From an uncultured Desulfobulbaceae bacterium (lineage in GTDB: Bacteria > Desulfobacterota > Desulfobulbia > Desulfobulbales > Desulfocapsaceae), in contig CAISPV010000043.1 in assembly GCA_903887485.1 (NCBI GenBank), positions 33,628-97,627 on the forward strand: a stretch of DNA of 64,000 nt, read 5' to 3'. The notes under the pieces are model-generated. The model searched no databases. It saw only the letters and a list, made by a program, of their open reading frames with translations, and had not been told where the DNA came from. Of this stretch, positions 2 through 27,895 are shown one piece after another. Made by a program: the position numbers and the translations under genes. Every line of letters begins with the position of its first letter. Positions within the stretch are counted from its first letter, which is position 1.

Positions 2-448
2 ACCGTGGTCCCTAAAGAGTGCGCCGCCTTTGACTCCCAAGGCAACCGGCAATTTATCCACCCCCTGTGGAACCGCCGCCACTGCACCAAGTTCAACGGC
101 GTATCCTATCCGGTGCAACGCGCGGCCGAGGCTATTTACAGCGAGGAAGGACAGGCCGAGACCAAGGAGCTTATCGCCTCGTACATGCGCAATGCCGATC
201 TGATCCGCCAGGAGATGGCAACCCTTGGTTATGATTTTGTAGGAGGCGAGAACGCGCCCTACATCTGGATCGATGCCAAGGGCGACTCATGGGAATTCTT
301 TGACATGCTGCTGAACAAGGCCGGCGTGGTCTGCACACCGGGCGCCGGATTCGGCAAATGCGGTGAAGGCTATATCCGCCTCTCCGCCTTCAACTCCCAG
401 GCCAATGTCGAAAAGGCCATGGCCCGTATCCGGGAAATGGGAAAGTAA
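2..448 (+). CDS. dapL: LL-diaminopimelate aminotransferase, C-terminal fragment (5' end lies upstream of the window)
   Basis: The frame is open from the window edge. The C-terminal fold-type I aminotransferase signature 'VVCTPGAGFGKCGEGYIRLSAFNSQANVEKAMARI' resembles DapL-type enzymes. Confidence 0.65.
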   Translation, partial: TVVPKECAAFDSQGNRQFIHPLWNRRHCTKFNGVSYPVQRAAEAIYSEEGQAETKELIASYMRNADLIRQEMATLGYDFVGGENAPYIWIDAKGDSWEFFDMLLNKAGVVCTPGAGFGKCGEGYIRLSAFNSQANVEKAMARIREMGK

Positions 449-483
449 CGACTCAAGCGAACAGACTTAACCTGCAACGCTTT

Positions 484-593
484 GTTGGGCGACGCTTCTT
501 ACCCGTTTTCAGTAGACCGAAAAGAGCCAGAAACAGTCAGTGGCTATTGTGGATTCAGTAAGGCGTAATTGTAATCTGGGATGGTCGCCCAAC
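484..593. repeat. Palindromic intergenic element: 10-bp inverted repeat GTTGGGCGAC / GTCGCCCAAC around a 90-nt spacer (GGGCGAC-core family)
   Basis: Perfect arms at 484-493 and 584-593. The right arm read in reverse gives GGGCGACCATCC, a 12-mer identical to one in the element at 17222-17324. Confidence 0.7.
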
Positions 594-605
594 GGACTAG
601 TCTAA

Positions 606-3600
606 TCAGCTCAATCTTTTTGTCAGGTCTATTCCAATAACCGTAATGTCGTCAACATTCGGGAATTTCGGAGAAATATACCGCCAATGGTCCTGAAGAG
701 CAACAGTCAGACCTGCAAAATCCACACGATTATCGCTACCGGGCACATCCCAACCAGCCTTCTCGCCCCGGTACACGAGCACAAAAATACCCAGATTTGA
801 GCGGTTGTCACGCAGATAGTCACCGCAAAGCTGGTTTTCAAGGCGTTCAAACAGTTTCGGTCCGGCCCAATTGTCGGCGAGTTTGAGTTCGGCAGGGACT
901 GGTCCATCGAAACCTACCCCATGGAATCTCAGGTCTGGCTTTTTGGCATCGGCAAACTCCTCTTCCTGTGGAATGGAATACCGTCCGAATGCTTTCTCTC
1001 GTAACTCCCGCCCAATGTACTTGCGCATATCTGTTTCATGCGTAACGGCTTGCAAAATGCCCGCGACGCTACTGTCACCATGTTCCAAATCGTCCTTGAG
1101 ATCTAAGAGCCGCAGGACGGCAAGTTCAGATAATTCTCTGTGATTGCGGGGAGTACGCTCCAGCTTCTCGTGGAAGTCCCTCACTTGCGAGGGCAACCAA
1201 GGTCCAATATCGCCGTCCTGTTCGGCCTTGGTCTTTGCATGAAGTAATATCCAGGGCCGAGATGCCTCTTCAGGATGCACCTTGGCGATGTCCATTAGCG
1301 CCAAAAACGACTCTTTGCCAGGAATCTGGCTCAGCAAGCTAAACAGGCTATCCCGTGCATCCTGCGCGTCGTCGCGCAATCCTGGCGAATAGGTGCCCTT
1401 TCCAGCACGTTCGATATCCTCTTCGCGCCGGATGTATTCATGCATCAGCAGGTATAGCGACTTCAGGTATTCCGGCGTTTTGAACGCCTGTCGCACAGCA
1501 GTTCCATTAACTCTGCGGCCACCCAAAAGATGAGCTACAAAAGTCATCGCGAACGAAGTTCGCTTCTTCGGAGCAGTTATCTTTCCAATTTGGGCTTTAA
1601 AAGCTGCAATTGCGGCTTCAGGAGCAACGCCGGTCCATACGGCAAACCAGCGAGCCACATGATCTGGATTCTTTATGACACGACATTTTCGAGATGCCAG
1701 CTTTTCGATGAGATCATCTGATATGTTTGATCCCTGAATAATCTTCAGCAGCTTGTCCAGGTTGGACAGGTTCTTCGGCTCCCTTTTCAGGAGATCGTAG
1801 ATGCTGGGCGCGATCTGGTCCCAAGCCCACTGGCCCGACCAGCTTAAGTCGCTTATGACGTAGTGTGTTTCTGTCTCTATCTTCTCTATTGATAACTCGT
1901 ACCTGATTTCTCGCATGAGAAAGTCGCACACAATCTTTGGGTGCGTCTCGGAAAGCTTAGGAAACCAAGAGGGGAAGCCATTTAACTCAAAAGATGCGTA
2001 TTTACACGCGAGTTCTACTTCCGCGGGGCTCAGATTATTCAGCCAGCCTTTGGTCTCATGAGCCTCGATCTCGAGGCCGATGAGACCAATGATAACAGCC
2101 AGTGATGTTTGGTTGAGTGGAGCGCCTTCTGATCGCAACTGTGGCTTATGGTTCCGCCAAATGAAAACTGTGCCATCCCTATAGAAGCGTGCGACTTCCT
2201 CTCCGTACTCTGGTATCAGCGTTTTCCAATTATACTCGGTCCACCGCCCCGTTGTACTATTCTTATCTCGAATCTGTTCAAAAAGATAGCGCAAGGAGTT
2301 TGTGATTAACCCAGGCTTTTCGCGGAGTGCAACTCGGTCTTCGTCAAGTTTGTCGTTGAGATATTTCTTCCAGTCCGTGTGGTATTTCTCTTGTTTCTTT
2401 CGATTGGCTTCGTCGCGCTGTTTCCATTTAGCTTCCTGTTGCTTCCTGCGGAGCGAATCCCGACTTTGAGCGGGCGGCCTCAAATAGGTGCCAAGGCGTT
2501 CAGACAGCTCATCATTGCCTGCGACCAACTTCTTTAGTTGTTCACGCCATACGCGCGGTCGACTAGCAGCGTTGTAGAGATTAAAGGCCAGCGACAAGGC
2601 AACCAATTTGTCGTCCAGAAGCGTTTGGCGGGAAATCTCCTCAGTGACATATTCAAAATCGCCTTCTTCGAACCGGCAGAACGATCTGAAAATCGAGGTT
2701 TTCCAAAAGTAGGTCAGCCGCTCTCCATTCTTCTTGTCAACGGCCTCTCTCGATTTTTGTACTTCGAACCAGAACAACGCCCGGTTCATCTCCTGCCATG
2801 CCGAAACGAGCTTTGGGAATTCGGCCTTGACGTCGGTCAGTTCATAGCTCGAGTAGTCACGCACAGCTGAAAATTTGTACAGGATTGCAAGCGCATCCGG
2901 TTCGAGCGATGCAGGATGACGGGCCAAGATCAATCGCTCGACCGCTTTGCATGCCGACGCCATCAACCATTGAAATTTCTCGGATACTTCGCAATACCGG
3001 CGTTCAATCATCGGGGGAAGGCTAAGCAGCCTGTTCAAACCGGTAACAAGCTGCGGAAGTAGCTCAATGCCGGTACTACCCACAAATTCTGTTACGCCGC
3101 CCGTCAGATGATCAACGGAAAAGCGCTCATTCGGCACGCTCTTTTCCAAGCACGCCAAGAGCCAAACCAAAGTCTGTTCTGTCGGCTGGACACCTTCGAG
3201 AAGTTCCGCAAGCCACTCCCGCTTAAGTTCAGATGCCTCTTCCAGAAAACTCTGACGGACATGCTCTTGATCCTCGTTGGAACCAATCGCCTTGATGGCC
3301 CTGAATGCCGTTATACGGGTGTACTGTTCTGCAGTTGGCATTAGCGCAACGTTCTTAGCTTCGGGTAGTGCGCCCACAAGCTCCCCGAGCCATACCATGC
3401 GGAATAGGAATGCCGTCAGATCTTCGTTGTCTGCATACTGTTGGAGCAACCTGCGAACGTCATCGGTCAGGTCAGAGTTTGCGAAACGCTGGACCGCCGC
3501 ATAATCTCGCATTGAGCCTCCAGTGGCACCGTCGGCCATTTGCTCACAAACTTCGTGCAGTACGTAGCGACGAACTTCTATAGGCAGCTGACTAGGATCG

Positions 3601-4952
3601 CCACCTTCAAAGATAATCTCAGGCGCAACTTTGCGGACACGCTCCCTGATCTTCTCATCCAGAATTGCCAGCCAAGGCAAAATTGGACGTAGCGTAGGTA
3701 CAACAATGTCCAAACCGTACTGATTGCGAAAGAATAGCCCTTCGATGGTTCGGCGCGATGTTTCACGCTTGAGTAGTTCAAAGAACCACTCAGCGGCAAG
3801 GTATTCACGTACCGAGCGATGGTGGAAGCGTACCGCGCCATAAATTTCGTCGTCGAATATGGGACGCGACAGCAACGTGGACTGATCCTTGTCGTCCCAA
3901 TCGGGAAGCACGGATTGAACTGCGATCCCTTTGGAGTTCTTGGCTCCATCGGGAACCCTGATCGTCGGGTCCTGAGCCAACGTAGTGGCTGCCGCCAGGA
4001 GCCTTGATCCCTGGCGAGCGCGCTCTGCCGAAAGTGGGCGTGCATCGGCACGACCTTGGTCACGCTCAGCCAGCCTTCGATCGATGCTGTTTCGCATGAT
4101 CTCAAGGCGGGTTCCAATCCGACCTCTGTCGAGCCAGAATTCAGTAAGTTCTTCCAGATCCTGAGGGCGCGACGTGAACGACCAGGCATCTGCACGTTCC
4201 ACGGCATCGAGAAAAGCTTTACTGTCCTCCATTCCCCGAGCCTTGGCTAACACCGCAATCTGATCAGATGTGAGATCATCGAGCGCAACGATCTTGAAAA
4301 CCGGTTGGGCCTTGCTCATCGTTTCAGATTCGATCTGCAAGCTTCCTTCAGGGCTATCATCCTCAGCCTGCGGATCACGTTCCGATGTGGCAACCACCGC
4401 ATAAGGCAGATGAGCGGTACAATAGGCAAGATCAGTCTTAGGCCGCCATGCTGTCGTTCGACCGGTTATGACGATATGCGTCCGGTCTTTGGCTATACTG
4501 ATCCGCCTGCTCAGCTTACGGATCGCGAGTTCAAAGTCGCCAGGATTTCGAAGACGCGCTTCGTCCACCGAGTCGAGGAGAAGCCAGCCCTCCTCACCAG
4601 ACGACAACCATTCCTCAAAGGCCTCACAAGTTCCGACCTCAAAAGCAACCTCGAAATCTCTGGGGATATGTTCCAAACGAAGAAAAAACGCAGGTTTTCC
4701 CTGTTCCCTAAGCGTGTGTGCGATGTTGCGGATTTCGGCAGTTTTGCCCGAGCCGGCCTCGGACAGAATGATCAGGCGGTACTTATTGATAAGGTCGGGC
4801 CAGCCGAGGCGCTCGCCAGCACCGAACGCACGGCTGACATCCACGTCGTCGTTTTGACTGCTATGTTCCGACAGCTCATGGAATGTCCTGTGGAGCTCGA
4901 CAAATTCAGAGTTTGAGTCGAAGGTAGTTGTCGGATCCATTTTGATCATCAC
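606..4952 (-). CDS. Large NACHT/STAND-like P-loop NTPase with a long helical-repeat region and a C-terminal PD-(D/E)xK-like nuclease motif; candidate defence or sensor protein
   Basis: Uninterrupted 1,448-aa ORF. It has Walker A 'SEAGSGKT', Walker B 'WLLLDSVDEARL' and 'HIVITGRT', in NACHT order near the N-terminus. The C-terminus reads 'KKPDLRFHGVGFDGPVPAELKLAD'. Alternative starts are GTG 4952, ATG 4949 and ATG 4940. Confidence 0.75.
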   Translation of the reverse strand: MMIKMDPTTTFDSNSEFVELHRTFHELSEHSSQNDDVDVSRAFGAGERLGWPDLINKYRLIILSEAGSGKTAEIRNIAHTLREQGKPAFFLRLEHIPRDFEVAFEVGTCEAFEEWLSSGEEGWLLLDSVDEARLRNPGDFELAIRKLSRRISIAKDRTHIVITGRTTAWRPKTDLAYCTAHLPYAVVATSERDPQAEDDSPEGSLQIESETMSKAQPVFKIVALDDLTSDQIAVLAKARGMEDSKAFLDAVERADAWSFTSRPQDLEELTEFWLDRGRIGTRLEIMRNSIDRRLAERDQGRADARPLSAERARQGSRLLAAATTLAQDPTIRVPDGAKNSKGIAVQSVLPDWDDKDQSTLLSRPIFDDEIYGAVRFHHRSVREYLAAEWFFELLKRETSRRTIEGLFFRNQYGLDIVVPTLRPILPWLAILDEKIRERVRKVAPEIIFEGGDPSQLPIEVRRYVLHEVCEQMADGATGGSMRDYAAVQRFANSDLTDDVRRLLQQYADNEDLTAFLFRMVWLGELVGALPEAKNVALMPTAEQYTRITAFRAIKAIGSNEDQEHVRQSFLEEASELKREWLAELLEGVQPTEQTLVWLLACLEKSVPNERFSVDHLTGGVTEFVGSTGIELLPQLVTGLNRLLSLPPMIERRYCEVSEKFQWLMASACKAVERLILARHPASLEPDALAILYKFSAVRDYSSYELTDVKAEFPKLVSAWQEMNRALFWFEVQKSREAVDKKNGERLTYFWKTSIFRSFCRFEEGDFEYVTEEISRQTLLDDKLVALSLAFNLYNAASRPRVWREQLKKLVAGNDELSERLGTYLRPPAQSRDSLRRKQQEAKWKQRDEANRKKQEKYHTDWKKYLNDKLDEDRVALREKPGLITNSLRYLFEQIRDKNSTTGRWTEYNWKTLIPEYGEEVARFYRDGTVFIWRNHKPQLRSEGAPLNQTSLAVIIGLIGLEIEAHETKGWLNNLSPAEVELACKYASFELNGFPSWFPKLSETHPKIVCDFLMREIRYELSIEKIETETHYVISDLSWSGQWAWDQIAPSIYDLLKREPKNLSNLDKLLKIIQGSNISDDLIEKLASRKCRVIKNPDHVARWFAVWTGVAPEAAIAAFKAQIGKITAPKKRTSFAMTFVAHLLGGRRVNGTAVRQAFKTPEYLKSLYLLMHEYIRREEDIERAGKGTYSPGLRDDAQDARDSLFSLLSQIPGKESFLALMDIAKVHPEEASRPWILLHAKTKAEQDGDIGPWLPSQVRDFHEKLERTPRNHRELSELAVLRLLDLKDDLEHGDSSVAGILQAVTHETDMRKYIGRELREKAFGRYSIPQEEEFADAKKPDLRFHGVGFDGPVPAELKLADNWAGPKLFERLENQLCGDYLRDNRSNLGIFVLVYRGEKAGWDVPGSDNRVDFAGLTVALQDHWRYISPKFPNVDDITVIGIDLTKRLS

Positions 4953-5051
4953 CCCAAGTTAACAGATCAGCGAGGTGCCGCAGATCTAGGATAGGATTTT
5001 CTAAATGCCTTTAGGCTCTGAGGCCCCGGCAGCAGGAGGACACCCAATAAA

Positions 5052-6002
5052 CTAAATCCTTGAGCATGTACACTCTGACTGCAGCACTGCCGGCTGGAAA
5101 GAGACCTGTTCTTCTTTGCCCGGCAGCTCGGTGACAACTGTCGCCCCATGCTCCTGCAGCCAATGGACAACCCCAAGCACCAGACGTTCAGGGGCAGAGG
5201 CCCCGGCCGTCACCCCAACGCTGGCATGTCCCTGCAACCATTCCGGATGGATATCGGTCTCATCATCAATCAGATATCCCGTCATTCCGGCCCTGACGCC
5301 AACCTCCCGCAACCTATTGGAATTGGAGCTGCTTTTCGAACCAACCACCAGGAGGATATCCGTCTTCTGCGCCAGTTCCTTCACCACATTCTGGCGATTC
5401 TGGGTGGCATAACAGACATTTGAGCGGGGGCCTCTGATGGCCGGAAAACGCTGTTCCAACTTCTTTCTGATCCCGGCGATATCGTTCTGGCTGAGGGTGG
5501 TCTGGGTGACATAGGCAACCCGCTGAGGATCAACAACCCGCACACCCTCTGCCTCCTCCTCCGAGGCGATGACATGCACCCGATTAGCGACCCGGCCAGC
5601 CACACCCTCCACCTCTGGATGCCGGTGATGGCCGATGATCAGGACCTCACACCCATCGGCATGATATTTTTCCACCATCCGGTGGACGCTGCTCACCAGG
5701 GGGCAGGTGGCATCAATAGTCCGCAGCCCAAGGATCTGCGCCTGTTGCTGAACGGCCACTGACACCCCGTGGGCGCTGAAGATACAGACCGCCCCCCGCG
5801 GGATATCGGCAAGTTCCACCATAAAAACAACGCCTAATTCCTCCAGCTCCTGGACGACATGTTTATTGTGCACGATCTCGTGGAGCACATAAATCGGCGG
5901 CCCATACTGTTCAAGGGCCAGACGCACAGTGGCAATGGCCCGCACCACACCGGCGCAGAACCCTCGGGGATTGGCCAGGATAATCTCTTTCAGCATACTC
6001 AT
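5052..6002 (-). CDS. ispH: 4-hydroxy-3-methylbut-2-enyl diphosphate reductase
   Basis: 'MLKEIILANPRGFCAGVVRAI' is the classic IspH/LytB N-terminus and the length is as expected. The start is ATG 6002 or ATG 5996. The TTG at 6050 given in the ORF track lies inside a repeat element and is rejected. Confidence 0.9.
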   Translation of the reverse strand: MSMLKEIILANPRGFCAGVVRAIATVRLALEQYGPPIYVLHEIVHNKHVVQELEELGVVFMVELADIPRGAVCIFSAHGVSVAVQQQAQILGLRTIDATCPLVSSVHRMVEKYHADGCEVLIIGHHRHPEVEGVAGRVANRVHVIASEEEAEGVRVVDPQRVAYVTQTTLSQNDIAGIRKKLEQRFPAIRGPRSNVCYATQNRQNVVKELAQKTDILLVVGSKSSSNSNRLREVGVRAGMTGYLIDDETDIHPEWLQGHASVGVTAGASAPERLVLGVVHWLQEHGATVVTELPGKEEQVSFQPAVLQSECTCSRI

Positions 6003-6034
6003 CAGCCAAGTAAAAAGGAGGAAATGAACGGTTA

Positions 6035-6217
6035 AACCTAAAAACGGCAATTACTTCATAATGTAAATACCGCTCCCCCTCATCCCCAGTCCTTCTCCCT
6101 CAGGGAGAAGGGAGAAAGCCGACCCTCTCCTTTTGGGAGAGGGTCGGGGTGAGGGAAAGGTTTAGCAATACAAGAAGTTGTTGCAAAATCACTGTATCCA
6201 ACTGCCGTTTTTAGGTT
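6035..6217. repeat. MITE-like GC-rich nested palindrome ('GEG' family), copy 1
   Basis: Perfect 15-bp terminal inverted repeat: AACCTAAAAACGGCA (6035-6049) / TGCCGTTTTTAGGTT (6203-6217). Internal hairpins are CCTTCTCCCTCAGGGAGAAGG and GACCCTCTCC..GGAGAGGGTC, and CCCCTCATCCCC pairs with GGGGTGAGGG. Confidence 0.8.
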
Positions 6218-8840: not shown

Positions 8841-10148
8841 TTACCCCCGGCCCACTCCCACATATTCAAACCCTGCGGCCTGCATTCTCTGAGGGGAATA
8901 AACATTGCGCAGATCGATAAACAAGGGTGTCCGCATCAGAGACTTGAGCCGTTCAAGATCAAGCGCCCGGTACTGATTCCATTCGGTCATCAGCACCAGG
9001 GCATCGGCGCCAGTGGCTGCCTCGTAAACATTATTGACATAGGAGAATTCTGGGAATAATTTCTTCGCCTCTTCCATCCCCTGAGGATCATGGGCCTGAA
9101 TCCTTGCCCCTTTTTCATGCAACGGAGGCAGGATACTGAGGGCCGGGGCATCACGGAGATCGTCTGTCTCCGGCTTGAAGGTCAAGCCGAGAACCCCTAT
9201 GGTTTTGCCCGCCACATCGCCGCCCAGCGCTTGACGGATCTTTTTGACCATCCCTGCCTTCTGCGCCGCATTGATCTCGACCGCTGCCGCCACTGATCGT
9301 GCGGAAACACCATGTTCCTGAGCAATCCGTAAGAGTGCCAGGGTATCTTTTGGGAAACAGCTGCCGCCAAAGCCAGGGCCTGGGTGGAGGAATTTACCGC
9401 CGATACGGCCATCCAGGCCAATGGCCTTGGCCAGATCCACCACATCCGCCCCCACCTCTTCACAGAGACTGGCCATTTCATTGATAAAAGAGATCTTGAT
9501 GGAAAGAAAGGCGTTGGCCGCGTACTTGATGAGTTCAGCAGATTCAAGGCCGGTAAAGACAAAAGGAGTAGAGATAAGATACAGGGGATCATAGATCTCT
9601 TTCATCACGGCCTGGGCCTTTTCCGATTCAGAACCAATGACGATCCGGTCCGGCCGCATGAAATCATTGAGCGCAGCCCCTTCCCGTAAAAATTCAGGAT
9701 TGGAGACCACATCAAAGTCGGCGTCTGGATTTTCCTCCCTGATCAGGCGGGCGACCTGCCGGGCGGTGCCAACCGGCACGGTACTCTTATCAATAATAAC
9801 CGTATACCCAGTAAGATACGGAGCAAGTTCTTTGACCGCGGCATAAATATAGGTCAGATCCGCATAGCCGTCACCACGCCTTGAAGTTGGCGTACCCACC
9901 GCAATAAAGACAGCCGAGGCATTCGGGACACACTCTGTCAGTTCAGTGGTGAAGGCAAGACGGCCTTCACTCACATTCTTGCGCACCAATTCTGCCAGTC
10001 CCGGCTCGTAAATGGGAATCTTCCCTTCCAGCAAGGAGTTGATCTTCCCCGCATCCTTATCCATGCAGATAATATGATGGCCAAATTCTGCCAGACATGC
10101 GCCTGTCACCAGACCAACATACCCTGTTCCAATTATAGCGATTTTCAT
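8841..10148 (-). CDS. ugd: UDP-glucose 6-dehydrogenase
   Basis: 'MKIAIIGTGYVGLVTGACLA' NAD-binding N-terminus and the catalytic 'GGSCFPKD' motif. Length is 435 aa. Confidence 0.9.
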   Translation of the reverse strand: MKIAIIGTGYVGLVTGACLAEFGHHIICMDKDAGKINSLLEGKIPIYEPGLAELVRKNVSEGRLAFTTELTECVPNASAVFIAVGTPTSRRGDGYADLTYIYAAVKELAPYLTGYTVIIDKSTVPVGTARQVARLIREENPDADFDVVSNPEFLREGAALNDFMRPDRIVIGSESEKAQAVMKEIYDPLYLISTPFVFTGLESAELIKYAANAFLSIKISFINEMASLCEEVGADVVDLAKAIGLDGRIGGKFLHPGPGFGGSCFPKDTLALLRIAQEHGVSARSVAAAVEINAAQKAGMVKKIRQALGGDVAGKTIGVLGLTFKPETDDLRDAPALSILPPLHEKGARIQAHDPQGMEEAKKLFPEFSYVNNVYEAATGADALVLMTEWNQYRALDLERLKSLMRTPLFIDLRNVYSPQRMQAAGFEYVGVGRG

Positions 10149-10532
10149 AGAAGATTTATTTTATTCTTTTGGTGATTGATAAATACATCGCAAACAACAT
10201 CGTAATTTGACGGTCATTATGAATAAAATCAGCTACTCAGGCGGACAGTTGGCAGATGTTGAGTCTGTTCGTAATGTAAAATTACCGACGAGGCCCGCTC
10301 TCAACCTTAACTTCGACCATTTTATCAACCAACCTTAGCCTCGAAGCGCCTAACCATCCTTAATAATTAGCTTTTCACCCTAACAAACTCCAGTCCCACG
10401 ATCGAAACAAATGGAGTAATCACGCACAAACAAACAGTTAGTTGTCCAGCACGAAACGCCATCCTTGCAATAAATCGAATAATATGATAATAATTTCCAT
10501 TACAGTTTCAAACAAACCAAGGGAGAAACAAA

Positions 10533-10892
10533 ATGACATTACTTGAAGGATTTTTATGGCTAGCCCTGAACGTGTATCATGAAGCACGTTCTGAGCCACA
10601 GATCGGACAGATTGCCATTGCCCATGTGACCCTGAATCGGGCCCAGCAACAAGATATCTCCATTGAAGAGGTGATAAAGCAACCACACCAGTTTCAATGG
10701 GTCCGGGGAAAAACGTATTTTCCTAACAATTTGCCTGTTTTTCTTCAATGTATGCAGTCTGCATTCATTGCCCTGAACACCAGCGATTTTACTGCCGGCG
10801 CGACCCACTTTCATCTCAAAAACATATCTCCCAAGTGGTCGTCCCATCTAACCTATATTAATCAGTACGGCAGTCACAAGTTTTACAGATAA
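10533..10892 (+). CDS. Small cell-wall hydrolase (SleB/Hydrolase_2-like domain only)
   Basis: 'LALNVYHEARSEPQIGQIAIAHVTLNR' and 'GATHFH' match the SleB-type cell-wall hydrolase domain. Confidence 0.65.
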   Translation: MTLLEGFLWLALNVYHEARSEPQIGQIAIAHVTLNRAQQQDISIEEVIKQPHQFQWVRGKTYFPNNLPVFLQCMQSAFIALNTSDFTAGATHFHLKNISPKWSSHLTYINQYGSHKFYR

Positions 10893-10938
10893 TTGCTGGA
10901 ATTGTAAACTTTGCTGGTCTCGTAACAAGCCATCAACT

Positions 10939-14280: not shown

Positions 14281-15837
14281 ATGATCGAGGACATTAAGAA
14301 AACACTGTGGGCCACTGCCGACAAGCTGCGTGCCAACATGGACGCTGCCGAATACAAGCATATCGTGCTTGGCCTCATCTTCGTCAAATACATCTCCGAC
14401 ACCTTTCAAACCCGCCGTGATGAGCTGACGCGGCGTTTTGCCGATAAGGATGACGACTACTTCCTGCCTGACGCCGATGCGGCCCTGCTGGCGACAGAGC
14501 TGGAAGATCGCGACTACTACCGGGAAGTCAATGTCTTCTGGGTGCCGGAAGCAGCGCGCTGGGAAAACCTGCGAGCCCAGGCCAAGCAGCCTGACATCGG
14601 CAAGCGCATCGACGATGCCCTGACCCTGATCGAGACCGAAAACCCCAAGCTCAAAGGCATCCTCGACAAACGCTATGCTCGCGTTCAGCTTCCCGACGGC
14701 AAGCTGGGCGAGCTGGTGGATATGGTCTCCACCATCGGTTTTGGCACCACCGGACAGAGCGCCCGCGACCTGTTGGGCCAGGTCTATGAATACTTTCTCG
14801 GTCAGTTCGCCAGCGCCGAAGGCAAACGCGGCGGCCAGTTTTATACTCCCAGAAGTATCGTTAAGACTCTGGTAGCAATCCTTGCGCCGCATCATGGAAA
14901 GGTTGATGACCCGTGCTGCGGCTCGGGCGGCATGTTTGTGCAATCGGAAAAATTCATCGAAGCGCACGGTGGCAAGATCGGCGATGTCTCCATCTACGGT
15001 CAGGAATCCAACCCTACCACCTGGCGTCTGGCAGCGATGAACCTCGCCATTCGCGGTATCGACTTCAACCTGGGCAGAGAACCTGCCGACACCTTTACCC
15101 GCAATCAGCACCCCGACCAGCGTTTTGACTTCACCATGGCCAACCCGCCCTTCAACATCTCCGACTGGTGGCACGCCAGCCTCGAAGGCGACCCGCGCTG
15201 GGTGTATGGCACGCCACCGCAAGGCAACGCCAACTACGCCTGGCTGCAACATATTTTGTACCATCTAAAGCCTACGGGCAGGGGCGGTATCGTTCTGGCC
15301 AACGGCTCCATGTCCTCCAGCCAGAACTCCGAGGGAGACATCCGCCGGGCCATGGTCGAGGCCGACAAGGTGGAAGTGATGGTGGCCATGCCCGGCCAAC
15401 TGTTCTTTAACACCCAGATCCCCGCCTGCCTCTGGTTTCTCGTCAAACAGAAGAGCAGCCGCCAGGGAGAGGTGCTGTTCATCGATGCCCGCAAACTCGG
15501 CACTATGATCAGCCGGGTGCAGATCGAGTTTACCGATGACGATATTCAGCGCATCGCCGACACCGTGCATGCCTGGCGTGGCGATGATGAAACCGATGCC
15601 GACTATGCCGACGTGGCCGGATTCTGCCGGAGTGTGACGCTGGCCGAGATTGCCGAACATGGCCATGTCCTGACACCGGGGCGCTATGTCGGTGCGGAGG
15701 CGGTGGAGGATGATGCCGAAGCCTTTGCCGAGAAGATGCAGCGGCTCACCGAGACGCTGGGTGAACAGATGGCCAAGGGTGCGGAACTGGACGGGCTGAT
15801 CCGGCAGAAGCTGGGAGGGCTGGGGTATGAGTTCTGA
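14281..15837 (+). CDS. hsdM: Type I restriction-modification system, DNA methyltransferase subunit
   Basis: HsdM N-terminal domain '[32 protein letters not shown]', SAM motif '[10 protein letters not shown]' and catalytic 'ANPPFN'. Confidence 0.93.
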
Positions 15838-17203
15838 TTGGCCACTTAAAGAGCTTGTGCTGATAGCTGATGAAGTTACAGTTGGCTATGTAGGGCCGAT
15901 GGCTACAGAGTATGTTGAATCCGGCATCCCATTCTTGCGTTCTCTGAACATTGATCAATTCAACATAAACAGTAACGACCTAAAATATGTAACGCCCGAA
16001 TTTCACCATCGCATAAAGAAATCGTCGCTTCATCCCGGTGATGTTGCGATTGTTCGTACTGGCAAGCCTGGTACGTGTGCGGTTATCCCTGATTGGTTAC
16101 AGGAAGCAAACTGTTCCGATTTGGTTATTGTCCGGTGTGGCAGAGAAATACGTCCACACTTTCTCTGTTATTGGGTTAACTCAAAAGCGACACATCACAT
16201 TGAATCACATACAGTAGGCGCAGTTCAGCAGCACTTCAACGTTGGCGCGGCGAAAACGATGAAAGTGGCAGTGCCATCCTTGCACAAGCAAGACCAAGTG
16301 CTTGAATTGCTCAGAGGTCTTGACGACCGCATCACCCTCCTCCGCGAAACCAACACCACACTCGAAGCCATCGCCCAAGCCCTGTTCAAATCGTGGTTCG
16401 TGGACTTCGACCCCGTCCGCGCCAAACAGGAAGGTCGCGAACCGGAAGGCATGGACGCCGACACCGCCGCGCTCTTCCCTGACAGCTTCGAGGAATCGGA
16501 ACTGGGGTTGGTGCCGAAGGGGTGGCACATAGGGTCTATTGGCCAAATTGCTGAGGTTATAGACTGCTTGCATAGTAAAAAACCTGAGCTTATTTCTGAA
16601 GGATGGCCATTTCTTCAACTCAGTAATATTCGTGATGACGGGCTATTAGACGCTTCCAATGTTTCCTACATTACTGAGGCAGATTACAGGAAATGGATCT
16701 CTCGGATTGAAGTTTCAGAAGGTGATTGTGTTATCACAAATGTTGGTCGAGTAGGTGCAGTTGCACAAATACCTTCAGGATTTAAAGCAGCCATGGGACG
16801 TAATATGACTGCGATGAGACTTAAACACGATTGGCCATACCCAACATATCTGATTGAACTGCTTCAGTCTTCATGGATGCGTACAGAAATAAAAAGAAGA
16901 ACAGATGTTGGCACTATTCTGGACGCACTTAATGTGCGCAATATTCCTGAACTGCGGTGCGTTCTGGCACCAAGTGATGTGATGAGAAATTTTGAGTTAT
17001 CCAGTCGTCCATTACGCGCGTCGATGGAAGCAAATTTGGAGCGAGCCAACAATCTCGCCACCCTTCGCGACACCCTGCTCCCCCGCCTGATCTCCGGCCA
17101 GTTGCGCCTGCCGGATGCTGAGGCGATGGACGATGAAGTTCTCATCCAGTCTGTAAAGGATCGCCTGGAAGAACGTAGCATCAAGGTGTCCCTTGAGTTA
17201 TGA
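15827..17203 (+). CDS. hsdS: Type I restriction-modification system, specificity subunit
   Basis: It overlaps the hsdM stop by 11 nt. Two AT-rich target-recognition modules are separated by GC-rich conserved helices ('[32 protein letters not shown]', '[21 protein letters not shown]'). Confidence 0.9.
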
Positions 17204-17221
17204 AAACGTAAAAGAGATTGT

Positions 17222-17324
17222 GTAGGGGCGACGCCGTTGGCTCGCCCAATTTTGTCTTTGATCTGTCTGTAAATTGCAACTGGTCATCTATTGCAACGGG
17301 GCGACCATCCGGGATCGCCCCTAC
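17222..17324. repeat. MITE-like palindromic element (GGGCGAC-core family) in the hsdS-hsdR spacer
   Basis: Terminal inverted repeat GTAGGGGCGA (17222-17231) / TCGCCCCTAC (17315-17324). Each end forms its own hairpin (GGGCGA..TCGCCC and GGGGCGA..TCGCCCC). There is an internal direct repeat ATTGCAAC x2. Confidence 0.75.
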
Positions 17325-17501
17325 GGAAAACGTTCCATCAATATGGCAACTGCCGAGGATTTCTCGGTAGTTCAATAAGAAAAGACTGATAGAGAAAAGA
17401 ACATTTGCCTTGTATTTTTAAACTGAAATCAATCAAATTGCCTTGTAATTTTAAATTCAGAACCATTTTCAGTAGTCCCATACTCCAATACCGGAGAAAC
17501 C

Positions 17502-20500
17502 ATGACCGAAGACCAACTCGAACAGGAAGCCTTGGGCTGGCTGCATGACGTCGGCTACCTCCATTGCTACGGCCTGGACATTGCGCCGGATGGCCCCGTC
17601 CCTGAACGCAGCAACTACAGCCAAGTGCTGTTGGTTGGCCGACTGCGCGAGGCAATCACCCGGCTGAATCCCTTAGTGCCGTTGGTGGCTCGGGAGGATG
17701 CCCTGCAACAGGTGTTGAATCTGGACACTCCGGTGCTCTTGGCTGCCAATCGCGCCTTCCATCAGCTCTTGGTCAATGGCGTGCCGGTCGAGTATCAGAA
17801 GGATGGCGAGACCCGTGGTGACTTCGTGCGGCTCATCGACTTTGCCGAGGTCGGGGCTAATGAGTGGTTGGCGGTGAACCAGTTTTCGATCAAGGGAGCC
17901 AAACACACCCGCCGCCCGGACATCATCCTGTTCATCAACGGTCTGCCGCTGGTTTTGCTGGAACTGAAGAACCCGGCGGACGAGAAGGCGGACATCTGGA
18001 AGGCCTACGACCAGATCCAGACCTACAAAGAGCAGATACCGGATGTGTTCCAGTACAACGAGGTACTGGTGATCTCGGACGGCACCGAGGCGCGCATGGG
18101 GTCGCTCTCTGCCGATGTCGAACGCTTTATGGCCTGGCGCACCATTGACGGCGAGACCCTTGACCCCCTCGGCCACTTTAATGAACTGGAGACCTTGGTG
18201 CGTGGGGTATTGGCCCCGGCTTTCCTGCTCGATTTCCTGCGCTTTTTTGTGCTGTTTGAGGATGATGGCACCTTGATCAAGAAGATCGCGGGCTATCACC
18301 AGTTCCATGCGGTACGTTCCGCCATCGGTCATGTAATCACGGCATCCCGACCAGGCGGCAATCAAAAAGGTGGTGTGGTCTGGCACACCCAGGGTTCTGG
18401 CAAGAGTATCACTATGACCTGTTTTGCGGCTCGGGTGATGCGCGAAGCGGCGATGGAGAATCCGACCATCGTGGTTATTACCGACCGCAACGACCTGGAC
18501 GGGCAACTGTTCGGGGTGTTCTCACTTTCCCAAGACCTGTTGCGCGAGCAGCCGGTACAAGGGGAAACGCGGCAGGACTTGCGGGCCAAGCTCGCCAACC
18601 GGCCATCGGGCGGCATTATCTTTGCCACCATCCAGAAGTTCATGCCGGGTGAGGACGAAGACAGCTTCCCGGTTCTGTCCGACCGCCACAACATCGTGGT
18701 AATCGCCGATGAGGCACACCGCACCCAGTACGGATTTGAAGCCAAACTGAAAACTATCCGCCGTTCTCGTTCGCCGATACAAGCCTTCGGGGACAAGCTT
18801 TATCAGAATGACGAGATGTTGATGGCTGCTGAAGATCCGGCCCGTTATGTAACACGCTATCAAGTCGGTTACGCCCAGCATCTGCGCGATGCGTTGCCTA
18901 ATGCAACCTTTGTCGCCTTTACCGGCACCCCGGTCTCCTCCGAAGACCGCGACACCCGTGCCGTGTTTGGCGATTACATCAGTATCTACGACATGCAGCA
19001 GTCCCGCGATGACGGGGCAACCGTGGCGATCTATTTCGAATCGCGCCTGGCCAAGCTGGGCCTGAAGGCTGATATGCTGGCGGACATCGACGCCGAAGTG
19101 GACGAACTGGCGGAAGATGAAGAAGACGATCAGCAGGCCAGGCTCAAGAGCAAATGGGCGGCGCTGGAAAAGGTAGTCGGTGCCGAACCGCGTATCAAAC
19201 AGGTGGCGGTTGATCTGGTGGCCCACTTTGAAGAACGTAATCAGGCCCAAACCGGCAAGGCAATGGTAGTCGCGATGAGCCGCGACATCTGCGCCCATCT
19301 CTACAACGCCATCATCGCCCTGCGCCCGGAGTGGCACGACGAAGACCCGGAAAAAGGCGTGATCAAGGTGGTGATGACCGGCTCCGCCAGCGACAAGCCG
19401 TTGCTGCGACCGCATATTTATTCCAAGCAGGTCAAGAAGCGGTTGGAAAAACGCTTCAAAGACCCAAACGATCCCATGCGCATGGTGATCGTGCGCGATA
19501 TGTGGCTCACCGGTTTCGATGCCCCTTGTGTGCATACGATGTATGTGGACAAACCGATGAAGGGGCACAACCTGATGCAGGCCATCGCCCGCGTCAACCG
19601 CGTGTTTCGCGACAAACAGGGCGGGCTGGTGGTCGATTACATCGGCATTGCCAATGACCTGAAAGAGGCGCTCAAGGAATACACCGCCAGTAAAGGTCGT
19701 GGCCGCCCGACCGTCGATGCCCACGAAGTATTTGCGGTGCTGGAAGAGAAACTCGATGTGCTGCGCGCCATGCTGCACGACTTTGACTACAGCGGCTTTC
19801 TCACCGGTGGCCACGGTCTGCTGGCCAAAACGGCAAACCATGTGTTGGGATTAAAGGATGGCAAGAAGCGGTTCGGCGATACCGCGCTGGCGATGGCACG
19901 AGCCTTTACGCTCTGCTGTACTCTGGATGAAGCCAGGGCCGTGCGTGAAGAAGTGGCCTTCTTCCAGGCGGTGAAGGTGCTGCTGACCAAAAGAGAGAGC
20001 AGCAAAATAAAGCTCAAGGATGAAGAGCGCGAAATGGCAATCCGCCAGATCATCGGCTCGGCCCTGGTCTCGGATGAAGTGGTGGATATTTTTCAGGCGG
20101 TGGGGCTGGAGAAACCGAATATCGGCATCCTGGATGAAGCTTTTTTAAATGAAGTATGCAACCTGCCGGAACGCAATCTGGCGGTGGAGCTCTTGGAGCG
20201 CCTGCTGGAAGGCGAGATCAAGACGCGCTTTGCCACCAACGTGGTGCAGCAGAACAAATTTTCGGAATTGCTCGCGGGCGTCATCTTGCGCTACCAGAAC
20301 CGGGCCATCGAAACCGCGCAGGTGATGGAAGAACTCATTGCCATGGCCAAGAAATTCAAGGAAGCCATTGGCCGGGGTGAAGAACTCGGCCTTAATGCTG
20401 ATGAGCTGGCCTTCTATGATGCACTGGCCAACAACGAAGAGGCTGTGCGCGAGATGGGCGACGAGATCCTGAAGAAAATCGCCCACGAATTGGCGCAAAA

Positions 20501-20672
20501 CCTGCGCCAGAACATCAGTGTGGACTGGTCGGTACGCGACAGCGTGCGGGCCAAGCTGCGGCTGATGGTGAAGCGGATTTTGCGCAAGTACAAATACCCG
20601 CCAGATCGGCAGGAAGAGGCCATCAAGTTGGTGCTGGAACAGGCGGAAACATTGAGTGCGGAGTGGGAGTAA
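17502..20672 (+). CDS. hsdR: Type I restriction enzyme, endonuclease/helicase subunit
   Basis: 1,056 aa. N-terminal nuclease region, helicase motifs 'HTQGSGKS' (I), 'VIADEAHRTQ' (II) and 'FTGTP' (III), and 'QAIARVNR' (VI). Confidence 0.93.
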   Translation: MTEDQLEQEALGWLHDVGYLHCYGLDIAPDGPVPERSNYSQVLLVGRLREAITRLNPLVPLVAREDALQQVLNLDTPVLLAANRAFHQLLVNGVPVEYQKDGETRGDFVRLIDFAEVGANEWLAVNQFSIKGAKHTRRPDIILFINGLPLVLLELKNPADEKADIWKAYDQIQTYKEQIPDVFQYNEVLVISDGTEARMGSLSADVERFMAWRTIDGETLDPLGHFNELETLVRGVLAPAFLLDFLRFFVLFEDDGTLIKKIAGYHQFHAVRSAIGHVITASRPGGNQKGGVVWHTQGSGKSITMTCFAARVMREAAMENPTIVVITDRNDLDGQLFGVFSLSQDLLREQPVQGETRQDLRAKLANRPSGGIIFATIQKFMPGEDEDSFPVLSDRHNIVVIADEAHRTQYGFEAKLKTIRRSRSPIQAFGDKLYQNDEMLMAAEDPARYVTRYQVGYAQHLRDALPNATFVAFTGTPVSSEDRDTRAVFGDYISIYDMQQSRDDGATVAIYFESRLAKLGLKADMLADIDAEVDELAEDEEDDQQARLKSKWAALEKVVGAEPRIKQVAVDLVAHFEERNQAQTGKAMVVAMSRDICAHLYNAIIALRPEWHDEDPEKGVIKVVMTGSASDKPLLRPHIYSKQVKKRLEKRFKDPNDPMRMVIVRDMWLTGFDAPCVHTMYVDKPMKGHNLMQAIARVNRVFRDKQGGLVVDYIGIANDLKEALKEYTASKGRGRPTVDAHEVFAVLEEKLDVLRAMLHDFDYSGFLTGGHGLLAKTANHVLGLKDGKKRFGDTALAMARAFTLCCTLDEARAVREEVAFFQAVKVLLTKRESSKIKLKDEEREMAIRQIIGSALVSDEVVDIFQAVGLEKPNIGILDEAFLNEVCNLPERNLAVELLERLLEGEIKTRFATNVVQQNKFSELLAGVILRYQNRAIETAQVMEELIAMAKKFKEAIGRGEELGLNADELAFYDALANNEEAVREMGDEILKKIAHELAQNLRQNISVDWSVRDSVRAKLRLMVKRILRKYKYPPDRQEEAIKLVLEQAETLSAEWE

Positions 20673-25555: not shown

Positions 25556-27895
25556 ATGAAACGACCGCCTCTGCTCACTGAAGATGGGTATCTCCTGCTT
25601 GACCCGCAGACGGAACCGACCATTGACACCAAACTGGGTGTCCCCAAGCTGGCAGGCATCCTGCGCTTTGAAGAGACAAGCGACACCATCCGCGGCGTTG
25701 TCAGTGACATCGTGGCCGCAGGTCTCATGCGCCAGCGCTGCTCCCTGATCGGCAGGAGCGGCCATTCCCAGATTGGCCTCGACCTGGATTTCGGGAACGG
25801 TCTGCCGGTGATTGACTCCCGTCGCAAACGCATCGATATCCCAATCCACCTCTTTTCACTGAACCCCAACATCCCCGATTTCCTCTTTGCCGAAATCAAA
25901 TCCATGGCCGACCGCAACCGGCGCCTGACCGTGGGCAGGCTTTTCATCCCCATGGCCGACCCCCTTGGCCGCGCCGAGATCGAAGAGGCGGCGGCCGGCA
26001 ATTATCTGCTGCTGCCTGCCAATGCCGCTATTGACGATGAAGGCGTCATCACCCTCCCCCTGGAAAACAGCCGCTACCTTCTTTCCAACACGCTGCTGAC
26101 CGCCGGCCAGAATACCCAGATCGTGCTCAGCGAGAGCAAGGAGGGTCTGGGTCTGATTCAATACCCTTCCCGCTGCGGGCTCCCCAGTACTCTATCGCCA
26201 GGCGACTTTCTGTGCGGTGCCATCCGCATCTCCCTTGGGCCTTACAGCGCCTTGATCGACAGGACACTCAATGAACCGGGTGTTTTTCATCTGGCCGCCA
26301 GGTTGCTTGATGCGGTGCGGACCAGCGGCATCAGGGTCCCACGACAGGTTGAGATCTACAATGGCAGCGACCAGCCGGTTACCCCCGGAAACTTGCAGGT
26401 ACGGCTCCGTCTCTTCCCCACCGACCTGAACACCACCCGGATAACCAAACAACTGCTGACCGGCAATCAGGGCCGGAGAATCATGCAACATGGCGTGGAT
26501 TTCGCCGATGCCACCCATATCTTTGACCTGAATGTCAGTGACGCCCTGTTCGACAATATCAGTCACATAGCATCTATCCGCGGCAATTACGGCCGCATCC
26601 TGACCCGCAGCAAGTGCATAGAGATCCAGTGGGAACTTCTGGAAAACGAGTGGCACGAAGCCGCCCAGAACCGGATTATTTACGAGGCAGTCCGGGGCAC
26701 CATCACCTCCGGCGTCCATCAGGGAGAGCAGATCGACCCTGACCTGCGGCGCTTTACCGAAACCCTGGATCTGGTCGGCGGGGCCCAGAACCTGCGCAAG
26801 GTCTTCATTACCCATGCCTTCCCGGCCACCGACACCCTCCGTGTGCTCAAACGCAATAACGTCGGGGTCTTTATCGGCCGCAGCATCCGCCAGAGCGAGG
26901 CCCAGGAAAATCGCACCCATTGCCATCCCCTACCTCCGCCTCCGGACAATATTTACTTCGGCGGCGCCACCTATGAGACCTTCTGCGAGATGTCCTGCCA
27001 CGAAGACGTCCGTTTCTACATGATTTTCGGGCAAGACAAAGAGCGGCACCTGCGCGAGTTCCACCGTGGATTCTGGATGACCAGAGAAGGCAAAGAGAGG
27101 ATCGCCGACACCCACACCATGATCGCCATGTTCGGCTCCCATATTGACGGGACGGAAGGGGTGCTCACGGAGCAGATTCACGATTTTTTCAAGCAGCTCC
27201 GCTCTGTCCCTGAGATCGGCGACCATTTCGCGGTCTGCCATGGCAGCGGCCCAGGGGTCATGAAGATCGCCGATGACACGGCCGCAAGCCTTGGCATCCT
27301 CCGCATCGGCGTTGGCATCGACAGCGAGAAGATAGGTCAGCGCGCCAATCTCGACCCGCCGATCCTGCTCAACTTCAACAACTCCGCCCGCCACATGCGC
27401 CAGAACATCCTCGACCGCACCTCCCTGTTCAAGATCTACAACATCGGCGGTATGGGCACCTTTGAAGAGATGCTGATCGCCGTCACCAACCTCAAACTCT
27501 TTGAGAGCCTGCCCGCCCCGCACATCTTTGTCGATCCCTTCGGTCTTGGCGAGAACGGGGCCCATCTATGGCAATCAACCCTGGAACAGTTGCAGACCGC
27601 CTCAAGCATGAAGACCATCGGCACCCACAACGTCCGCCTGGCCCCGGCTTGGGTACCCAACTTCTGTCACGTGGCCAACGACTACAAAGAGGTGTTCGAG
27701 ATCATCGCCGGATTTGCCCATGACCCGGTGGCCTACTGGCAGAAGGCAGGGATCCCGGAGCAGGATCTTCTCCAGGCCTGGGACAATGCTATCCGCAGCA
27801 AGGTCATCATTCCGCCCTACCTGCAACAGGCAATCCTGACCGTACGCGGTCGTGGAGAGCAATCGCGGGAACCATCTAAAAACCAGGGGACATGA
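25556..27895 (+). CDS. LOG-family (TIGR00730/PpnN-like nucleotide nucleosidase) domain protein with a roughly 450-aa uncharacterised N-terminal region
   Basis: The C-terminal half has 'VCHGSGPGVMKIA' and 'GGMGTFEEMLIAV' (the PGGxGTxxE LOG motif). I could not assign the N-terminal half. Confidence 0.6.
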   Translation: MKRPPLLTEDGYLLLDPQTEPTIDTKLGVPKLAGILRFEETSDTIRGVVSDIVAAGLMRQRCSLIGRSGHSQIGLDLDFGNGLPVIDSRRKRIDIPIHLFSLNPNIPDFLFAEIKSMADRNRRLTVGRLFIPMADPLGRAEIEEAAAGNYLLLPANAAIDDEGVITLPLENSRYLLSNTLLTAGQNTQIVLSESKEGLGLIQYPSRCGLPSTLSPGDFLCGAIRISLGPYSALIDRTLNEPGVFHLAARLLDAVRTSGIRVPRQVEIYNGSDQPVTPGNLQVRLRLFPTDLNTTRITKQLLTGNQGRRIMQHGVDFADATHIFDLNVSDALFDNISHIASIRGNYGRILTRSKCIEIQWELLENEWHEAAQNRIIYEAVRGTITSGVHQGEQIDPDLRRFTETLDLVGGAQNLRKVFITHAFPATDTLRVLKRNNVGVFIGRSIRQSEAQENRTHCHPLPPPPDNIYFGGATYETFCEMSCHEDVRFYMIFGQDKERHLREFHRGFWMTREGKERIADTHTMIAMFGSHIDGTEGVLTEQIHDFFKQLRSVPEIGDHFAVCHGSGPGVMKIADDTAASLGILRIGVGIDSEKIGQRANLDPPILLNFNNSARHMRQNILDRTSLFKIYNIGGMGTFEEMLIAVTNLKLFESLPAPHIFVDPFGLGENGAHLWQSTLEQLQTASSMKTIGTHNVRLAPAWVPNFCHVANDYKEVFEIIAGFAHDPVAYWQKAGIPEQDLLQAWDNAIRSKVIIPPYLQQAILTVRGRGEQSREPSKNQGT

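Follow-up and report, generated by a model that had tools for sequence, protein, structure and literature searches.

The window analyzed here is a 64-kb stretch of DNA (64,000 nucleotides; contig CAISPV010000043.1, positions 33,628 to 97,627) from an uncultured Desulfobulbaceae bacterium, and close to its start lies a 4.3-kb gene (window positions 606..4952, minus strand) that encodes a large STAND/NACHT-type NTPase. To judge from its sequence, this gene is a new copy of the known HyoA antiphage family and no undescribed system. We consider it fairly probable that its product is a stand-alone STAND/NACHT anti-phage receptor of this family, acquired horizontally as a self-contained cassette of ~4.6 kb, for which a nuclease mechanism is proposed below. 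A preliminary description of the window had presented the gene as a candidate undescribed defense system; this novelty was not sustained, because a curated NCBIfam equivalog, HyoA, and a sister model, EruA, already exist. The idea of a single-gene anti-phage protein is supported by the NCBIfam name and by the defense-island context of HyoA in Escherichia coli and Klebsiella, and this name and context form the basis for its presumed protection against phages. The appropriate annotation is thus that of an antiphage NACHT protein of the HyoA family, rather than that of a candidate for a new system.

Assignment to the HyoA Family

The protein matches the NCBIfam model NF058534.1, an equivalog named "NACHT domain-containing antiphage protein HyoA" (NCBIfam release 20, June 2026), with 1796.4 bits against a cut-off of 1200, and the alignment runs end to end, with amino acids (aa) 20–1446 corresponding to profile positions 1–1430 of 1430. 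Its length (the family spans ~1430–1450 aa), its single-gene organization and its conserved motifs are those of HyoA, and nothing speaks against membership. The 4.3-kb open frame, the full-length 1796-bit profile match and the more than 1500 homologues are together more than chance would produce, indicating that the open reading frame (ORF) is a real gene. As initially described, this ORF is single and uninterrupted, running from a GTG at 4952 to a stop codon at 606–608 (1448 aa). In the public protein that is 100% identical (P0001; 1444 aa), gene callers place the start at the ATG at 4940, four codons after the GTG. A Shine-Dalgarno-like GGGGTGA directly precedes this ATG and, together with the choice of the gene callers, makes it the more likely true start (1444 aa).

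The E. coli/Klebsiella protein, WP_205854001.1 in E. coli, also passes the HyoA model (1422 bits), although its identity to the window protein is no higher than ~34%; the latter falls in an environmental subclade. The sister family EruA (NF058535.1, "NACHT domain-containing antiphage protein EruA") is homologous, aligning over aa 221–1399 at E = 1e-46, so that both families have the helical region and a portion of the C-terminal domain in common. Nevertheless, its score of 159.6 bits is far under the cut-off of 1000, and the window protein is no member of EruA. A scan with PADLOC v2 (2023) retrieved no family for HyoA at E <= 1, including no Avs or bNACHT model. The family therefore looks new against older resources because the 2023 PADLOC library holds no HyoA model, and scans resting on PADLOC v2 (2023) or on Pfam alone will keep re-reporting it as new.

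Domain Architecture

The N-terminal part of the protein (~aa 55–400; window 3753..4790, this and all further features of the gene being on the minus strand) is a NACHT-type STAND NTPase module made of a P-loop domain, a helical domain and a winged helix, as delineated by weak Pfam matches and conserved motifs. All the motifs quoted in the preliminary description (SEAGSGKT, WLLLDSVDEARL, HIVITGRT, RRKQQEAKWKQRDEANRKKQEKYH, KKPDLRF, and AELKL) are present in the protein. Conservation of the NTPase motifs was assessed in 26 homologues, with identities to the window protein down to 32%. The Walker A motif SEAGSGKT (aa 64–71; 4740..4763) conforms to the pattern GxxxxGK[ST], and its residues G67, G69, K70, and T71 are invariant. 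The Walker B motif WLLLDSVDEARL (aa 123–134; 4551..4586) reads LLLD127-S-V-D130-E131 at its core and carries the NACHT-type acidic pair [GAS]-x-D-E; no variation is seen at L126, D127, S128, and E131, and at least 90% of the sequences retain D130. The definition of the NACHT Walker B as hhhhD plus [GAS]-x-D-E reportedly comes from Koonin and Aravind in 2000. The sensor-1 region HIVITGRT (aa 159–166; 4455..4478) contains the invariant R165 (HIVITGR165T), the family consensus being HIxITSRxxAWRP. Finally, the winged-helix histidine motif VRFHHRSVREYLAAEW (aa 374–389; 3786..3833) includes RFHH378RSVREYL, with V374, R375, F376, H378, and R379 conserved in at least 90%; its general form, RFHHRSxREYL, resembles the NACHT winged-helix signature "FxHxSxQE[FY]L".

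Pfam profiles recognize this module poorly. In the window protein, NACHT, nSTAND_NTPase5, and nSTAND3 match aa 59–172 below threshold, the NACHT model PF05729 reaching 14.7 bits (E = 0.027) against a gathering score of 26.7 bits; among the 26 diverse members, sub-threshold matches to nSTAND_NTPase5 and NACHT were obtained in 11/26 and 4/26, respectively. Judged by its motifs, the module is a divergent NACHT-type STAND NTPase, in line with the naming by NCBI, and the earlier assignment to this class is supported by the Walker A, the Walker B D-S-x-D-E, the T-[GS]-R of sensor-1 and the F-H-H-R-S-x-R-E-Y-L of the winged helix. The module is larger than first described, spanning ~350 aa instead of ~180 aa. 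Only ~55 residues stand ahead of the P-loop strand, with Walker A beginning at aa 64, and therefore HyoA has no N-terminal effector.

The NTPase module is followed by a helical repeat region of ~860 aa (aa ~401–1260; 1173..3752), the putative sensor. HEAT-like matches were found around aa 540–620: a profile of 84 homologues retrieved artificial HEAT-type alphaRep proteins from PDB (9sah_A, E = 8.6e-7, profile positions 521–598), and Pfam HEAT_2 was detected in 3/26 members (best E = 3.3e-4). The single HyoA sequence retrieved no match from PDB, and outside aa ~540–620 the central region had no match in any library searched; we take this remainder to be helical as well. A sensor role of these repeats would follow by analogy with Avs and bNACHT25/32. 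The region also contains a highly charged stretch, RRKQQEAKWKQRDEANRKKQEKYH (aa 835–858; 2379..2450), that is retained in the family consensus.

The C-terminal domain (~aa 1255–1448; 609..1190) is the putative nuclease effector and has a predicted PD-(D/E)xK-like topology. Its putative catalytic core, PDLRFHGVGFDGPVPAELK (882..935), extends from D1340 through E1355-x-K1357, in agreement with the D...(D/E)xK pattern of this superfamily. The two motifs involved, KKPDLRF and AELKL, are located at aa 1337–1343 and aa 1354–1358, so that the spacer between them is 10 residues and not the 13 given in the preliminary description. In an alignment of 84 diverse homologues, with identities in the domain down to 38%, the three putative catalytic residues are invariant, as are E1290, E1306, R1310, E1330, Q1374, Y1379, and W1401 (84/84 for each). 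An AlphaFold2 model of the last 194 aa built with these 84 homologues (md41b566602e5) has a predicted local distance difference test score (pLDDT) of 94.3 and a predicted template modeling score (pTM) of 0.89; an earlier model of aa 1180–1448 from a shallow alignment (25 sequences, 72–86% identity) had a pLDDT of 49 and was discarded. The retained model comprises helices at model residues 2–11, 17–37, 43–46, and 52–65, a hairpin of strands 87–91 and 98–104, and then helix 110–125, strand 133–140, helix 158–175, and strand 181–188. D1340 (model D86) is placed just ahead of the first hairpin strand (87–91), E1355 and K1357 (model E101 and K103) fall within strand 98–104, and Q1374 and Y1379 (model Q120 and Y125) are on helix 110–125. 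The predicted core thus has an alpha-beta-beta-beta-alpha-beta topology, with the aspartate at the start of strand 2 and the ExK in strand 3, and this modeled placement of the residues, together with their invariance, is the classical PD-(D/E)xK arrangement.

When the last 269 aa were compared with 1.84 billion cluster representatives, 1655 matches were obtained. Of the best 150, most measure 1400–1490 aa and match at their C-terminal end, and the shorter ones resemble fragments of proteins built in this way. Within these best 150 of 1655 matches, the domain is therefore found only in the HyoA architecture. Swapping of the C-terminal domain was considered as well and rejected: the truncated copies on Rhizobium plasmids appear to result from decay beside insertion sequences and not to represent alternative effectors. 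As the HyoA family shows, a putative nuclease can be located at the C-terminus of a NACHT immune receptor.

Insertion Between ispH and dapL

By its IspH protein, the host is identified as a Desulfocapsaceae-like member of Desulfobacterota. The gene is flanked by two housekeeping genes that are not part of the system, and both identifications of the preliminary description were confirmed by profile matches. Upstream and on the same strand is ispH (5052..6050, minus strand; TIGR00216, 301 bits against a cut-off of 187.85), with HyoA 99 nucleotides (nt) downstream of it. On the other side, HyoA is convergent with the 3' part of dapL (5..448, plus strand), which encodes the C-terminal portion of an LL-diaminopimelate aminotransferase and matches TIGR03542 partially (profile positions 260–400 of 402).

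Comparison of the dapL–ispH junction in three relatives (84–90% DNA identity) shows the two genes only 33–89 nt apart, with HyoA absent. The closest relative, L026 (89–90% DNA identity), aligns with window positions 12500–5077 and resumes at 455–1; 43 bp replace the 4621 bp of the window (456..5076). The alignment pattern is the same in L027 and L029. The IspH proteins of the three relatives are 94%, 90%, and 89% identical to that of the window, and ispH homologues that are 84–94% identical occur in the same gene order as in the window, with an Aminotran_1_2 gene directly beside ispH in the relatives. The order ugd, ispH, dapL, pepN is the same in L026, L027, and L029. L026 additionally keeps panC, panD, degT, galE, a Fe-ADH gene and a GGDEF gene; L029 keeps the same set without galE, and in L027 this stretch is limited to the four shared genes. 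Since all three relatives have empty ispH–dapL sites, the ~4.6 kb at window ~456–5076 is an insertion, as previously suggested.

The composition of the gene points in the same direction. The HyoA ORF is indeed less GC-rich than its neighbors, with a GC content of 0.520 and a GC content at third codon positions (GC3) of 0.554, compared with 0.579/0.730 for dapL and 0.570/0.652 for ispH; its GC content corresponds to the 11th percentile of 4.3-kb windows within the 64-kb window, and so it is no extreme outlier. From the empty sites, the lower GC and GC3 and the different context in every other genome, all of them comparisons at the sequence level, we conclude that HyoA was acquired horizontally.

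The inserted DNA includes more than the gene. A non-coding leader of ~95 nt (4953..5047, minus strand) is conserved in other HyoA loci, with blastn identities of 81–90% to L001, L011, and L021 and 77% to L002, and a non-coding trailer of ~98 nt (508..605, minus strand) is 81% identical in L011 and L016, L021 also aligning. The counterparts (L001:183-278, L011:9959-10000 and 14348-14445, L016:14372-14446, and L021:9958-9987) are located directly upstream of HyoA in the case of the leader and directly downstream in the case of the trailer, in unrelated genomic contexts. Because these flanks are 77–90% identical at unrelated loci, HyoA moves as a cassette that includes its leader and its trailer. 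The leader presumably holds the promoter and the ribosome-binding site; it has diverged to the same degree as the coding region, too little for covariation to become visible.

The sequence TTTAGTTTA is common to window positions 5048–5056 and to the empty site of L026, which places the left junction near 5047; this sequence is also one candidate for a possible common target motif. The left edge is thus probably near 5047, and the right edge is located between ~461 and 508. At the edges of the insert, no direct or inverted repeat of at least 8 nt and no target-site duplication were detected. The insert does not qualify as a transposon, an integron cassette or an integrative element, as it contains no mobility gene and none recurs beside the homologues. 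We also observed that the last ~8 codons of ispH (5052–5076, minus strand) encode QSECTCSRI*, in comparison with SRVNSL* in the closest relative. These codons belong to the part without alignment to the empty site, and the 3' end of ispH may therefore have been reshaped by the insertion itself or by what followed it. The locus represents a very clean natural experiment, in which a one-gene immune cassette landed between two housekeeping genes, outside any defense island.

Genomic Neighborhood

HyoA is the only sizeable gene of the inserted segment, and its description as a solitary gene was upheld by the comparison with other genomes: no gene recurs beside it in 19 other genomes. When the greedy non-overlapping ORFs of at least 70 aa in these 19 loci were clustered, the only cluster common to at least three of them was HyoA itself, and neither ispH nor dapL was found next to HyoA in any of the 19 loci. 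The 136 neighbors within 5 kb are heterogeneous, with no recurrent partner. Defense matches are scattered among them (type I methyltransferases, pAgo, AriA, PD-T4-2_B, PDC-S23, PDC-S03, and mad2), and Fic, PIN, and DDE transposase domains also occur. Precomputed neighborhoods contain housekeeping genes, toxin-antitoxin pairs, an HNH protein and a Bro-N protein. We also considered, and rejected, the idea that a small ORF is conserved downstream of the gene: a 58-aa ORF follows HyoA in two loci, and the two sequences are unrelated.

The E. coli and Klebsiella copies are located within a typical defense island (L025:5352-18096 in E. coli NZ_CP148583.1; L024 in the Klebsiella plasmid NZ_CP129856.1). 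There, HyoA is flanked by a trio of genes encoding a TerB-N-domain protein, an ATP-binding protein and a DEAD-box helicase, and by a SIR2-family gene; the trio and the SIR2 gene were not recognized as named systems here. Genes for a GIY-YIG nuclease, antirestriction, RadC, CbtA/YeeU, and HsdR are found nearby.

These neighborhoods, together with the insertion, bear on the idea that the window gene could be a non-immune STAND protein with a signaling or regulatory function, having a housekeeping role tied to ispH and dapL. STAND regulators of the MalT type present an NTPase, a helical sensor and a C-terminal output domain in this order, and HyoA has the same domain order and is moreover co-oriented with ispH at a distance of 99 nt. 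Nevertheless, the output of MalT is a LuxR-type DNA-binding domain that activates transcription, whereas HyoA has a nuclease-like output and the mobile distribution of a defense gene; no DNA-binding helix-turn-helix recurs across the 26 diverse members scanned with Pfam. Furthermore, ispH and dapL do not adjoin HyoA in the other genomes, and the protein matches an antiphage equivalog of NCBIfam. As three close relatives lack the gene at this locus, a housekeeping regulator is essentially excluded, and an immune receptor of the HyoA family remains our preferred explanation.

Distribution and Spread of the Family

More than 1500 relatives of HyoA were retrieved from a set of 5.8 billion proteins. 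The best 120 of them are full-length (~1440–1470 aa) and 66–100% identical to the window protein, and their labels include Desulfobacterota, cyanobacteria, Thiotrichaceae, Nitrosomonas and a Roizmanbacteria bin. A collection with one genome per species contributed 19 loci, ranging from Desulfobulbaceae (80–83% identity) to Rhizobiaceae (41–59%) and including Nitrospirales, Synergistota, Acidobacteriota, and Chloroflexia. The environmental subclade to which the window protein belongs (52–83% protein identity) appears to extend over Desulfobacterota, Cyanobacteria, Gammaproteobacteria, Nitrospirota, Chloroflexota, Synergistota, and Acidobacteriota. Relatives are also present in 63 records of a plasmid collection, in three viral contigs of IMG/VR and, at 23% identity, in two records of phage GenBank. 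Among complete E. coli genomes, 3/5426 carry a copy that is 99.8–99.9% identical at the DNA level to that of the Klebsiella plasmid.

Full-length HyoA proteins are 66–83% identical across bins of different phyla (L001–L019, L020–L023), such as Desulfobulbaceae, Stenomitos (a cyanobacterium), Thiotrichaceae, the complete genome of Nitrosomonas sp. sh817, Chloroflexia, and Roizmanbacteria. This suggests that HyoA spread between phyla recently and without recognizable mobility genes, with the caution that some of the short contigs are possibly mis-binned. Many of the copies are disrupted. ISNCY or IS5 transposases split several genes on Burkholderia glumae plasmids (plasmid matches H2–H21), and the copy of Rhizobium pMK-2 ends at ~aa 1261 beside an IS21 element, with a Fic gene ahead of it that overlaps it (the set of disrupted copies comprises L012, L017, L019, and L030). 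Several metagenome-assembled copies are distributed over two to four frames, with fragmented HyoA in L012, L017, and L019; some of these may be long-read assembly errors.

Such a pattern raises the question of whether HyoA could be a selfish, addiction-type cassette that persists mainly by horizontal spread and by toxicity when disturbed, phage defense being incidental. The protein identities of 66–83% across several phyla, the conserved flanks of its own, the occurrence on plasmids with frequent disruption by insertion sequences and the fragmented copies would all be compatible with this idea. We nevertheless regard it as very unlikely, since the cassette lacks mobility genes, terminal repeats and target-site duplications, the curated name states an antiphage function, the copies of Enterobacteriaceae are in a defense island, and some of the fragmented copies may not be genuine, as indicated above. 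An antiphage receptor spreading horizontally accounts better for these observations.

Domain Order and Proposed Mechanism

The preliminary description had placed the NTPase at the extreme N-terminus and the PD-(D/E)xK-like domain at the extreme C-terminus, the reverse of the order in bNACHT and Avs proteins, and this is confirmed here. HyoA does not follow the canonical Avs/bNACHT architecture, in which an N-terminal effector, a central NTPase and a C-terminal sensor succeed each other (PMC12169576). The closest functional comparison is with bNACHT25 and bNACHT32, from clade 6 of the bacterial NLR-related proteins, whose PD-(D/E)XK DNase effector degrades DNA on activation and whose D48A mutant in this effector loses defense (PMC12169576). 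As in HyoA, these are single-protein NACHT receptors with a PD-(D/E)XK effector, putative in the case of HyoA. In contrast, their nuclease is N-terminal and their sensor C-terminal, whereas HyoA has the NACHT module at the N-terminus and the nuclease-like domain at the C-terminus. The Avs (AVAST) STAND receptors, Avs1–21, which according to a 2026 Nature survey of STAND proteins recognize conserved phage proteins (PMC13581612), are likewise large STAND NTPases encoded by a single gene, and combine helical-repeat sensors with nucleases or other effectors. They differ from HyoA in that no PADLOC Avs model matches it, in the reversed position of the effector, and in motifs that in HyoA are of the NACHT type rather than of the Avs type.

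The cassette, complete with leader and trailer, inserted between ispH and dapL of a Desulfocapsaceae-like host, and for the action of its protein we propose the following scenario. At rest, the protein would be an autoinhibited monomer. Upon infection, its ~860-aa helical, HEAT-like region would recognize a phage-derived cue, freeing the N-terminal NACHT module to bind nucleoside triphosphate (NTP) and to oligomerize. Oligomerization would gather the C-terminal PD-(D/E)xK-type domains, ~1200 residues distant from the NACHT end, and switch on DNA cleavage, which would halt the replication of the phage, probably at the cost of the infected cell. The activation by oligomerization, the nuclease activity and the abortive outcome are all suggested by analogy with Avs and bNACHT25/32; what the present analysis establishes is the membership in the family, the order of the domains and the conservation of their residues, the insertion, the organization as a single gene and the defense-island context.

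Several observations weigh against the receptor with a nuclease mechanism that we favor. With its domain order reversed, HyoA cannot be assumed outright to share the activation geometry of Avs or bNACHT. Foldseek searches with the C-terminal model found nothing at E <= 0.001 in PDB or BFVD; the best matches were at E = 0.055 in PDB and E = 2.8e-3 in BFVD, and the TM-scores in these weak lists were 0.23–0.42. No nuclease model of Pfam or PADLOC matches the C-terminus of HyoA (the window protein and, in Pfam, also the 26 diverse members), and a PHROGs search with HyoA gave nothing meaningful, with no nuclease model for the C-terminus. A consensus scan of the flanks of the gene remained at chance level, detecting no sigma-70 promoter in the leader and no canonical intrinsic terminator in the trailer. 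Lastly, full-text literature searches retrieved neither the names HyoA and EruA in this sense nor the primary study; the DefensePredictor study (Science) names its systems DS-n (PMC13092281), and the Nature survey, in its text, names Avs7–21 and no HyoA (PMC13581612).

The weak Foldseek lists repeatedly include PaqCI, Nt.BspD6I, R.BspD6I, the R2 retrotransposon protein, which carries a restriction-like endonuclease domain, DdmD, Mrr, and Rpb5, as well as entries labelled "PD-(D/E)XK" and "restriction endonuclease". The earlier claim of a C-terminal PD...(D/E)xK nuclease is therefore upheld in part: the motif and the predicted topology fit, but neither a Pfam nuclease model nor a significant Foldseek neighbor backs it. 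Since Foldseek gave no significant match, the assignment of the modeled domain as a PD-(D/E)xK nuclease is probable, short of proven.

The same lack of significant matches to characterized nucleases speaks for an alternative in which the C-terminal domain of this HyoA-family defense protein would be no killing effector, serving instead in the binding or sensing of nucleic acids or in oligomerization, with immunity obtained through another activity, such as the consumption of NTP by the NACHT module or the recruitment of a host factor. The C-terminal location of the sensor in canonical STAND receptors (PMC12169576; PMC13581612) also favors this interpretation. However, the D...ExK and the downstream Q...Y are invariant in 84 sequences and occupy canonical positions around the modeled hairpin, which is typical of active enzymes, and the role of sensor would be filled more conventionally by the ~860-aa stretch of helical repeats. 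We therefore consider a non-effector C-terminus unlikely, and a nuclease effector at the end of an antiphage receptor the better explanation.

A bolder interpretation combines the domain order with the distribution. HyoA might be a mechanistically uncharacterized "inverted" NLR-like receptor, with an activation geometry unlike that of Avs and bNACHT, and include an environmental subclade that spreads between phyla as a bare 4.5-kb cassette without recognizable mobility machinery. We put this forward tentatively, as it seems to us conceivable but somewhat improbable; if true, the spread as a bare cassette would imply an undescribed route for moving defense genes. Should the mechanism still be unsolved, K70, D127, E131, R165, H378, D1340, E1355, K1357, Q1374, and Y1379 are ready-made targets for mutation.

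Other Features of the Window

A complete type I restriction-modification operon is present at window positions 14281–20672 (plus strand), ~9 kb from HyoA, and the 64-kb window thus holds a second defense system. The operon consists of hsdM (N6_Mtase and HsdM_N), hsdS and hsdR (HSDR_N, SWI2_SNF2, and T1RH-like_C); hsdS has a weak Methylase_S match and a GC3 of 0.475, the lowest of the window. A scan of the window with Rfam found nothing at gathering thresholds. An ORF of 779 aa at 25556–27895 (plus strand) has a host-like composition (GC3 0.746) and no Pfam match at E <= 1e-5. Finally, a stretch of low GC content (0.41–0.46) is located at 10000–10900, between ugd and a DegT-type aminotransferase gene, and at the matching position the relatives carry a 119-aa Hydrolase_2 gene.

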